From NCBI GenBank assembly GCA_038882955.1, contig JAVZNC010000001.1, positions 160,001-224,000 on the forward strand: a stretch of 64,000 nucleotides of DNA. Reading direction: 5' to 3'. Positions 60,423-61,814 of this stretch are shown here, one piece after another. The first letter of the stretch is position 1. Each line of letters starts with the position of its first letter. The notes below the pieces were generated by a model. It made no database searches. It had not been told where the DNA came from and saw only the letters and a program-made list of their open reading frames with translations. A program made the translations under genes and the position numbers. The DNA is from Candidatus Bathyarchaeia archaeon. Its GTDB lineage: Archaea > Thermoproteota > Bathyarchaeia > Bathyarchaeales > Bathycorpusculaceae.

Positions 60423-61814
60423 TTACAAAAGAAGCTTTAAATCGTCAATTGCTTGTAAAACCTTTTTGCCGCGTTCTGTTATCTTGAAAAATTTTCTTCT
60501 ATCTTTTTTGTAACTTGCTATTAATCCTTTTCCATAAAGTTCTGTGAGGTGCTGGTATATTGCGCCTCTGGTCATTGTTTTTCCAAGTTTTTCCCACAAA
60601 TCGTAGCCGTAAGCATCCCTTTCTTTGAGAATCCTTAAGATTTTCTCTTTAGTGCTTATTTCTAAGCCTAAAACTGCCGTTTTCTGCTTTTTCGTTAACG
60701 CTTGCAGTATATCTGTGGCTTTAAGCCCGCTTCCAGTTATTGGACATACAACGCTTTCGTTTTTGGTGATGTGTCCTTCCTTAACAAGCTTTTTCAAAGC
60801 GGCAATTTCAGCTGAACTTGATGGTTCTGCAAATATGCCTTCATGTTTGGCTATGGTGAGTTCTGCCGTGAAAATTTCGCTGTCAGAAACTGTTAGGGCT
60901 AAGCCTCCTGACTCTTTTATCGCTTTTATTGCAAGTTCGCTTTGTATTGGCTCCTTAACAAGTAGGGCAAGGGCCTTTGTTGAAGGCTTTGCTGATATAC
61001 GCCTTTTCTTAAGTAGCATTTTAATTATTGCTGAGCTTCCCTCGGGTTGGACGCCGACCATTTTTGGAAGCTTTTTCGCTAAGCCTAACCGTTCAAGTGC
61101 TTTGAAACCTTTCCAAAGTGAATATATTGTTCCGCCGCTGCCCATAGAAACAATCATCCAGTCTGGAACTCCAAACTGTTCAAAAATTTCGTATGAAATT
61201 GTTTTCTGCGCCTCAATTACAAGCGGATTCAACTCCGCAGTTGCCTGATACCAGTTTAGTTCTTTTGCTAATGCCTCGGCTCTACGTATTGCGTCGTCAA
61301 TGAACTCTCCAAATTCTTCAATAGCAGCATCATAAACTAGCATTTGCGCCAGTTTACCAACATCAACAAGCTTAGGTACTATAACGTGGCAGTTCAGTCC
61401 CGCCTTTGCACAATAAGCAGCTATAGAGGCGCCGAGGTTTCCCATGCTTGCGCATACAAGCGTGTCATGTTTAAGGTCTAAAGCATTTGATGTTAGTAGG
61501 GCGGCAGCGCGGTCTCTATACGAGTTTGTCGGGTGTCTAGTTTCATCTTTTAGGTAAAGCTCTTTCAAACCTAAAAGTTTGGCAAGCCTATCAGCCCTAT
61601 GTAGGGGAGTTCCGCCCTCGCCCAAAGTTATCATGTGTCTAACTGGCGGAAGAAGATGCCTATACCTCCAAAAGCCAGCATAACCAGAAACGCCTAGTTT
61701 GCATGCAGATGAAATAGGCACATTATAGTCTAGTAAGCCTCCACATTTTTCGCACAAGCCACGTGGAGGAAACAATGGAAACTTGGCGCCGCATTTAAGG
61801 CACTCTAAAGCCAT
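60423..61814 (-). CDS. Threonine-synthase-like fold-type II domain (PLP Lys to Arg) fused to PadR wHTH
   Basis: Zn ribbon, LGEGGTPL, PTNSYRDR, ASMGN, SMGSGGT, ITGSGLK; tail YGYDLW..GAIYQHL..GLI..RKFFKITERG; ATG at 61814. Confidence 0.85.
   Translation of the reverse strand: MALECLKCGAKFPLFPPRGLCEKCGGLLDYNVPISSACKLGVSGYAGFWRYRHLLPPVRHMITLGEGGTPLHRADRLAKLLGLKELYLKDETRHPTNSYRDRAAALLTSNALDLKHDTLVCASMGNLGASIAAYCAKAGLNCHVIVPKLVDVGKLAQMLVYDAAIEEFGEFIDDAIRRAEALAKELNWYQATAELNPLVIEAQKTISYEIFEQFGVPDWMIVSMGSGGTIYSLWKGFKALERLGLAKKLPKMVGVQPEGSSAIIKMLLKKRRISAKPSTKALALLVKEPIQSELAIKAIKESGGLALTVSDSEIFTAELTIAKHEGIFAEPSSSAEIAALKKLVKEGHITKNESVVCPITGSGLKATDILQALTKKQKTAVLGLEISTKEKILRILKERDAYGYDLWEKLGKTMTRGAIYQHLTELYGKGLIASYKKDRRKFFKITERGKKVLQAIDDLKLLL

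Follow-up and report, generated by a model that had tools for sequence, protein, structure and literature searches.

Within a 64,000-nucleotide stretch of contig JAVZNC010000001.1 (assembly GCA_038882955.1, Candidatus Bathyarchaeia archaeon; hereafter the window), we describe a gene whose product joins a zinc ribbon and a threonine synthase (ThrC)-type, pyridoxal 5'-phosphate (PLP)-enzyme fold without its Schiff-base lysine to a PadR-type winged helix-turn-helix (wHTH) domain. It is likely, in our judgement, that this gene encodes a transcription regulator and not an enzyme, which would sense vitamin B6, most likely as PLP, and control genes for B6 uptake and synthesis. The argument proceeds from computational results, namely the domain make-up of the protein, the replacement of the lysine and the conservation of that replacement, the linkage of the gene to B6 genes, and palindromes, nearly unique in their genomes, that precede PF07155 and pdxS genes. 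We refer to the gene and its product as the regulator.

Domain make-up and the replaced lysine

The protein begins with a four-cysteine zinc ribbon, which Pfam zf-ChsH2 matches weakly (E 0.024) and which the canonical thrC paralogue of the same genome also carries. The ThrC-like domain that follows, recovered with identical coordinates in a separate search of the genome, is proposed to be the ligand-sensing part. The protein scores 201.1 bits against TIGR00260 (cut-off 167.1), and the C-terminal match to PadR (PF03551) reaches 46.1 bits against a gathering cut-off of 27 and spans positions 1-74 of the 75 in the model. Feature coordinates are collected in Table 1; the stop codon occupies 60425-60423 on the minus strand. 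An earlier note, written from the letters of the window, had read the motif PTNSYRDR with arginine in place of lysine, a phosphate loop SMGSGGT within an otherwise retained fold, and an appended PadR wHTH. The motif and its AGA codon are exactly as read, in coordinates as in alignment, and the other two readings agree with the domain and profile matches. In phmmer alignments to the threonine synthases 2zsj, 6cgq and 2d1f, Arg100 of H94-P-T-N-S-Y-R100-D-R falls on the lysine of 'nPTgSfKDRg', the Schiff-base residue of this enzyme family, and 'VSMGSGGT' (222-229) falls on the 'pvGnaGni' loop ('GnaGn' at its core), which in the family binds the phosphate of PLP.

An AlphaFold2 model of the whole regulator, built on 50 homologues (mean pLDDT 90.1, pTM 0.81), places a disordered linker (residues 376-384, pLDDT below 50) between the enzyme-like body and a domain of H-H-H-E-E-H topology, the PadR domain and the last helix together taking up residues 388-462. 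Foldseek comparison with solved structures returned threonine synthases as the top matches (TMt 0.85-0.89), and no solved chain that covers the fusion. Modelled alone, the C-terminal domain shows the same topology, with a helix after the wing, at a pLDDT of 94.3, and resembles LmrR and PadR (Foldseek TMq 0.75-0.80); a profile of 35 such C-terminal domains matches solved PadR proteins, 5dym at E 7e-14.

The arginine is a stable feature of the family around the window. All 120 listed close homologues (69-92% identity), named as Bathyarchaeia or Bathyarchaeota wherever the source gives a name, have arginine at the Schiff-base position, and the codon over 18 arginine-bearing loci is AGG in nine, AGA in six and CGA in three. 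The earlier note had cautioned that arginine lies one base from lysine and that its conservation would need checking; three different codons across these loci show that it is neither a one-base slip nor a read error, their variation being synonymous drift under selection for arginine.

Further afield, the position varies among relatives with a C-terminal extension. An initial homologue search with the regulator had given 1965 matches; wider relatives were drawn from a search of 1.8 billion cluster representatives, which yielded 151 aligned rows, 82 of them with a C-terminal extension. Leaving aside two N-terminally cut fragments, the Schiff-base position in the remaining 80 extended rows is occupied by leucine (19), arginine (17), isoleucine (16), valine (six), threonine (five), lysine (five), methionine (four), phenylalanine (three) and, once each, serine, tyrosine, alanine, asparagine and histidine. 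Three of the five lysine rows are proteins of 614-622 residues with a different architecture. By comparison, 66 of the 69 rows without an extension have lysine, the rest being two short fragments with arginine and one row with valine. The three longer proteins (P0245, P0255 and P0262) are lysine-keeping and ThrC-like, extended at the C terminus by about 215 residues, and P0245, when scanned, proved to carry PALP together with LeuA_dimer, the LeuA allosteric and dimerisation domain, apparently an enzymatic and separate fusion of the ThrC-type fold.

A quick, unrooted FastTree phylogeny of 162 rows, computed from the enzyme domain with the lysine column removed, resolves the PadR fusions into two well-supported clades, with the unfused enzymes as a third group. 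Clade A holds 35 fused rows (support 100; arginine in 23, lysine in six, other residues in six) and clade B holds 59 (support 97), none of them with lysine. Over all 94 PadR-fused relatives the position is thus arginine in 23, leucine in 22, isoleucine in 18, valine, methionine and lysine in six each, threonine in five and phenylalanine in three, with serine, tyrosine, alanine, asparagine and histidine once each, whereas 64 of the 65 unfused relatives have lysine and one has valine. At least 35 residue changes are needed on the tree among the fused rows, against one among the unfused. The lysine versus non-lysine state requires four changes and the fused versus unfused state three; the tree would allow, though it does not establish, that the fusion arose once. 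The proposal of the earlier note that the protein is catalytically dead is supported by this comparison, which suggests that the PadR-fused family has largely dispensed with the catalytic residue.

The remainder of the pocket tells a different story. No column but position 100 is both fully conserved among the unfused enzymes and changed in kind among the fusions; the pocket columns G125, N126, D101, R102, K89, E91, E209, G225, G227, T360 and E330, which include residues holding the ring and phosphate of PLP, are kept at 86-100% in the fused clades, and all of these except K89, E91 and E209 at 90-100%. As the rest of the pocket is conserved while position 100 changes, it looks maintained for a PLP-like ligand whose covalent anchor is dispensable.

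Linkage to vitamin B6 genes and candidate operators

Vitamin B6 enters the argument through the gene downstream, an ECF-type S component of the family PF07155, to which PdxU and PdxU2/HmpT belong, two of the only three characterised prokaryotic B6 transporters according to a passage of a 2023 survey (PMC9997740). We sampled 76 loci from species-representative genomes, searched with the window's neighbours, of which 33 encode full-length fusions and 43 have a match that ends before the wHTH. A PF07155 gene adjoins the fusion in 23 of the 33 (in Bathyarchaeia, Promethearchaeota, Hermodarchaeota, Thorarchaeota and Nitrososphaerota) and adjoins none of the 43. Its orientation varies with lineage: on the same strand and downstream in close Bathyarchaeia; convergent in the Promethearchaeota and Hermodarchaeota loci and one Bathyarchaeia locus; divergent in Nitrososphaerota, Nitrosopumilales, Thorarchaeota and another Bathyarchaeia lineage. 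Among 74 flanking open reading frames (ORFs) scanned with Pfam, no further partner recurs. A second sample was phylum-wide and covered 301 genomes; its best 30 loci comprise 23 full-length fusions and seven unfused genes, and a divergent PF07155 gene is present at 15 of the fused loci and pdxS-pdxT at one, while all seven unfused loci are without both.

Genes for B6 synthesis are drawn into the same arrangement. No PdxS or PdxT was found near the fusion in loci L011-L086, and a scan of 151 Bathyarchaeia genomes yielded three, from three genera (G079, G022 and G076), in which pdxS (321 residues) diverges from a clade-B fusion at a distance of 157-196 bp. It is followed there by an ORF of 202-207 residues that matches across the three loci, and which we take, from its N-terminal sequence, to be pdxT.

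The 52 bp that separate the stop codon of the regulator from the start codon of the transporter gene contain a 22-bp palindromic candidate operator, which ends 13 nt before the ATG and overlaps a TATA-like stretch. One base off the dyad TAGTATAGTT-RT-AACTATACTA, it is unique in the window and was matched in none of 100 window shuffles, and no second site turns up in the 1.54-Mb genome when up to three mismatches are allowed. It is kept in 12 of 12 same-strand orthologous loci, the flanks of which cannot be aligned, and at locus L020 it stays with the transporter gene, which is there 3 kb away. A repeat search with a six-base seed reported no inverted repeats in either intergenic gap; the palindrome, which has a central mismatch, emerged only from comparison of orthologous gaps. 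An Rfam search of the gap for RNA elements gave only one chance-level match.

Dyads of related form recur before the same genes across the family. All 15 divergent clade-B loci, together with L042 and L065, have the dyad ATATATAAG[CT]T-N-A[GA]CCTATATATAGG before PF07155; it is also present, whole, at L070, and the three loci with adjacent pdxST (L095-L097) have a dyad of this type before pdxS. The Asgard loci have two tandem dyads before PF07155 with the core AAGTT-N-AACTT, and an AAGTT-AA-AACTT dyad lies upstream of PF07155 even in two genomes whose regulator gene is not nearby, one from Thermococcus and that of L032. Close copies of the window-type site lie 12-20 nt before the pdxS start in all three genomes, from the window's family or order, that have both the regulator and pdxS. 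A degenerate 20-nt pattern, allowed no mismatches, found eight distinct sites in five genomes, five of them upstream of PF07155, three upstream of pdxS and none elsewhere, and the reversed-pattern control found none; it is on pattern searches of this kind that the proposed regulon rests. Over 35 fusions of both fused clades the recognition helix '[AS][IV]YQHL' hardly varies, which fits the shared core of these dyads. Together, the linkage to B6 genes and the conserved palindrome before them lend support to the earlier note's suggestion that the fold was repurposed as a ligand sensor.

The six fused relatives that keep lysine, from Asgard and some Bathyarchaeia, are instructive as to the order of events. 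The earlier note had held that fusions retaining the residue would tell against loss of catalysis; this applies to these six of the 94, and the remaining 88 have other residues. The six share the transporter linkage and the dyads, a related dyad preceding PF07155 at the lysine-keeping Bathyarchaeia locus L027. The regulatory role would thus not need the loss of lysine, and the fusion and that role probably preceded it; in the PadR-fused family lysine loss is, to judge from the relatives sampled, frequent and not obligatory. Upstream of lysine-keeping fusions in the Asgard records L028, L030 and L031 we observed either a flavin-reductase-like gene (L028) and a nitronate-monooxygenase-like gene, or ZIP metal transporters and a DtxR-type repressor domain, with no evident link to B6.

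Table 1. Positions of the features discussed, in window coordinates
Feature	Position	Strand	Basis or description
Regulator gene, 463 aa	60426..61814	-	zinc ribbon + ThrC-type PLP fold without Schiff-base lysine + PadR winged helix
Four-cysteine zinc ribbon, N-terminal, residues 3-27 (C5, C8, C21, C24)	61734..61808	-	CLKCG...CEKCGG
ThrC-like PLP-enzyme fold type II domain, residues 62-361	60732..61631	-	Pfam PALP, E 2.1e-75
Arg100 codon AGA, Schiff-base lysine position	61515..61517	-	alignment to solved threonine synthases
PadR-type winged helix-turn-helix, residues 392-454	60453..60641	-	Pfam PadR, E 5e-12
22-bp palindromic candidate operator	60386..60407	.	comparison of orthologous gaps
PF07155 (PdxU / PdxU2-HmpT family) ECF-type S component, 248 aa	59627..60373	-	Pfam, E 1.9e-29
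AIR-synthase-related gene (PurM superfamily; HypE/ThiL/SelD-like)	58583..59596	-	Pfam AIRS + AIRS_C

The PF07155 protein scores 103.3 bits against a gathering score of 26.7, is encoded by the only such gene in the genome, and is proposed to be the regulated component of a B6 vitamer transporter. Its sole solved sequence relative is chain S of 4HZU, HmpT of Lactobacillus brevis (E 1.5e-9), a protein first proposed as a carrier of hydroxymethylpyrimidine (HMP), in which the bound substrate was identified by mass spectrometry as pyridoxamine, as a passage of the structural report has it (PMC4860826). The window protein has an insertion of about 85 residues (approximately 102-186) relative to both L. 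brevis HmpT (166 residues) and the 176-residue orthologue at L013, and its Pfam match is split accordingly.

The genome as a whole is consistent with reliance on uptake. In this assembly, which is 95.6% complete, we found neither PdxS nor ThiC, and one each of a PF07155 gene, an EcfT and a ThiD/PdxK-type kinase, so that uptake is plausibly the organism's source of B6; the missing ThiC suggests that it also depends on an external thiamine precursor. PdxS scores above cut-off in no more than 21 of the 151 Bathyarchaeia genomes sampled (completeness 85% or higher throughout), a low frequency that suggests widespread dependence on external B6 in the class.

The AIR-synthase-like gene starts 30 bp past the transporter gene and is probably co-transcribed with it. 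A gene of this kind adjoins nine of the 33 fused loci, including one in Nitrosopumilales; we observed it in L011-L016, L023, L026, L073, L142 and L144, and in Bathyarchaeia it follows the PF07155 gene. The window's protein falls below the cut-off of every NCBIfam model, HypE, ThiL and SelD included, and a name look-up returned generic names only. It was rejected as ThiL (90 bits against a cut-off of 184; the true ThiL, at 262.7 bits, is on contig 11) and as HypE (130.7 bits against 251.6). It may provide an ATP-dependent step tied to B6 salvage.

On the other side of the regulator, and divergent from it, lies a gene for a small TPR protein of 132 residues (61935-62333, plus strand), conserved near the regulator in L011, L012, L013, L015 and L023 at 59-80% identity. 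An ORF resembling ATP-dependent DNA ligase, identified by eye from its translation, follows on the plus strand from 62426 and runs off the window's end at 64000. The Nitrosopumilales record L073 also contains (1333-4059, plus strand) a eukaryote-type topoisomerase IB gene with weak internal Pfam matches to intein-splicing and LAGLIDADG domains.

Proposed mechanism, objections and competing explanations

From these results we infer DNA binding, dimerisation, the identity of the ligand and repression as the direction of control, in the following scheme. A paralogue of threonine synthase would have gained a C-terminal PadR winged helix, and the family would then mostly have lost the lysine that anchors PLP and serves catalysis, keeping the rest of the cofactor pocket. 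That pocket would bind a form of vitamin B6, likeliest PLP, reversibly and non-covalently, and the loss of lysine would have turned a slow, covalent and chemically reactive site into an equilibrium sensor. A dimer of the regulator would act on the 22-bp palindrome over the TATA and start region of the downstream operon, comprising the PdxU-family component and the AIR-synthase-like gene. When B6 is plentiful the liganded regulator would sit on the site and shut off uptake, and when B6 is scarce it would leave it; in relatives that make B6, the same motif before pdxS would place synthesis under the same control.

Several points weigh against this scheme. Binding of PLP, binding of DNA and the lack of catalysis are all deduced from sequence and predicted structure, and that control is by repression is guessed from where the site lies. 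The linkage is incomplete, in that ten of the 33 fused loci have no B6 gene nearby (five of these ten at a contig edge), as do seven of the 23 fused loci in the phylum-wide sample (two at contig edges), and the presence of the regulator does not track the absence of PdxS, since it occurs in at least 65 of the 151 genomes, including six of the 21 with PdxS. The six lysine-keeping fusions, with the same linkage and dyads, could still be enzymes. Being AT-rich and overlapping TATA-like sequence, the dyads may owe part of their conservation to promoter signal. The AIR-synthase-like gene, a conserved partner, has no place in the model. B6 is, further, a putative substrate for the window's PF07155 member: among the HmpT contact residues in the aligned part, Glu41 is kept, His84 falls on a lysine and Gln87 on a glutamate (residues as given in a passage of PMC4860826), HmpT was initially named for HMP, and the window's genome is also without ThiC in our search.

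Among the alternatives, the one that fares best, though we consider it unlikely, is that the domain senses an amino-acid-type metabolite from ThrC chemistry (O-phosphohomoserine, threonine or a PLP-amino-acid adduct) and couples the supply of B6 to amino-acid status. The protein retains the carboxylate-loop core 'G-N' (G125, N126) and most columns conserved in ThrC, and it is conceivable that a PLP site without lysine would accommodate an external aldimine formed beforehand; the MocR regulator GabR works via an aldimine of PLP and its effector. However, the only recurrent neighbours and motif-bearing genes belong to B6 transport or synthesis, with no recurrence of threonine or methionine pathway genes, and where 2zsj has 'vNSvNPyRiE', a segment we assume to hold the residues that bind the phosphate of O-phosphohomoserine, the regulator has 'ATAELNPLVIE', in columns that are variable even in the unfused comparison set.

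Enzyme-regulator fusions do exist, BirA and archaeal RbkR among them, and the protein might on this precedent be bifunctional, still an enzyme (with non-covalent PLP or some other chemistry) as well as a DNA-binding regulator. We rate this as more doubtful again. The strong conservation of almost the entire pocket apart from the lysine, and the lysine kept in six fused relatives, would accord with it; set against these are the canonical thrC already in the genome and the history of position 100, where R, L, I, V, M, T, F, S, Y, A, N and H all occur and the tree requires 35 changes or more, and which so behaves neither as a catalytic residue nor as a functional substitute for one.

A regulon concerned with HMP, the thiamine precursor, seems to us very improbable. 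HMP-phosphate chemically resembles PLP, ThiC was not found in the window's genome, and HmpT was first predicted to carry HMP, yet the pyridoxamine found in HmpT by mass spectrometry (both statements from passages of PMC4860826) points to B6, as do pdxS-pdxT as divergent neighbour in three genomes and the motif before pdxS in three more, and no thiamine genes recur near the fusion. Finally, a decaying thrC copy, or an arginine (AGA) that is a sequencing or assembly error one base from lysine (AAA), is refuted by an intact frame and confident model, by the arginine in 120 of 120 homologues with its three codons, and by the family's presence in several archaeal phyla with conserved linkage.

Returning to the regulator as a sensor of B6, a more ambitious version of that proposal, on which we would place a little better than even credence, takes the gene as the founding example of an archaeal family of B6 regulators. 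In this family a ThrC pocket stripped of its lysine would read free PLP by binding it reversibly and steer a PadR domain, controlling PdxU-type uptake and pdxST in Bathyarchaeia, Nitrososphaerota, Thermococci and Asgard archaea, with the same regulon as PdxR and independently of it, and the AIR-synthase-like gene would supply the missing ATP-dependent step of anaerobic B6 salvage.

Relation to known systems, gene names and significance

Compared with ThrC itself (TIGR00260, PALP; 2ZSJ, 6CGQ/6NMX, 2D1F, 1UIM), the regulator is alike in fold (35-38% identity; TMt 0.85-0.89) and in most pocket columns, and differs by the replaced lysine, the appended PadR domain and a neighbourhood of B6 rather than threonine-pathway genes. 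Among regulators, its nearest functional counterparts are the MocR proteins PdxR and GabR, which likewise join a PLP-enzyme fold, as sensor, to a winged helix. Neither domain is homologous: MocR proteins combine an N-terminal GntR wHTH with an aminotransferase-like domain of fold type I and keep the PLP lysine, while the regulator, in which a Pfam scan found no GntR or aminotransferase domain, has a ThrC-like domain of fold type II and a C-terminal PadR wHTH. A passage of one comparative study states that MocR regulators are absent from Archaea, and gives pdxST, pdxK and pdxU as members of reconstructed PdxR regulons (PMC5320631). The likeness of the regulator to PdxR, a regulon of pdxST and pdxU deduced from linkage and motif sites, is therefore one of functional analogy and not of membership.

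Known members of the PadR family (PadR, LmrR, AphA) are small proteins that work as regulators by themselves, sensing phenolic acids or drugs at their dimer interface. The C-terminal 80 residues of the regulator match this family in sequence and fold, and the candidate operator is palindromic; its wHTH is instead tethered by the disordered linker to a 370-residue sensor derived from an enzyme. The design logic is shared with archaeal ThiR (thiamine) and RbkR (riboflavin), in which an enzyme fold related to a vitamin pathway, coupled to a wHTH, controls the genes of that vitamin, the folds and vitamins being different. Our literature search, which lay outside subscription journals, found no description of a ThrC-PadR fusion or of any regulator of B6 in Archaea; it returned a single archaeal thrC fusion, an unrelated cysH-thrC of Thermoplasmata, in a passage of PMC11237513. 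As judged from these comparisons, the regulator would represent a new form, reached by convergence, of the design that couples a PLP-fold sensor to a winged helix; it is found widely among Archaea and is consistently mis-annotated.

The mis-annotation, which the earlier note had anticipated, is plain in the records, where close homologues bear the public name 'threonine synthase'. The best NCBIfam model for the regulator, NF004170 (PRK05638, an equivalog), is also named 'threonine synthase' and scores it at 399.7 bits, below a cut-off of 421 that is passed in one of the 151 sampled Bathyarchaeia genomes. The alignment runs end to end, regulator residues 3-456 on model positions 2-441 of 442, and as it spans the whole fusion the model was evidently built from this architecture; its name very probably describes an activity that the PadR-fused family lacks. 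The genome holds three ThrC-family paralogues, as well as a TrpB-like gene. Apart from the regulator, they are a canonical thrC on contig 21 (5237-6232; NPTGSFKDRG, STGNTSAS and GNAGN), cut by the contig end, and a lysine-bearing ThrC-like gene of 392 residues ('SSGNAGAS'), which lies beside a thermosome gene on contig 1 (348089-349177, minus strand; 1492-2670 of record L007). Because the canonical thrC (record L006; both paralogues are numbered as in the genome record G000) is present elsewhere, the genome would have no need of the regulator gene for threonine.

If the proposal is true, the family would fill a gap, as no vitamin B6 regulator for Archaea was found in the literature that we searched. 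Given the names in public records and in NF004170, metabolic reconstructions of uncultured archaea may wrongly credit a threonine-synthase function to genes of this family. The linkage would likewise mark archaeal PF07155 genes as B6 transporters, in a field that a passage of the recent survey calls poorly studied (PMC9997740). Dependence on external B6 in Bathyarchaeia, should it be as widespread as the scarcity of PdxS suggests, would bear on cultivation media and on cross-feeding. More broadly, the family may serve as a natural experiment in the conversion of an enzyme to a sensor, in which the fusion apparently came first, and the lysine was lost later, many times, to many different residues.

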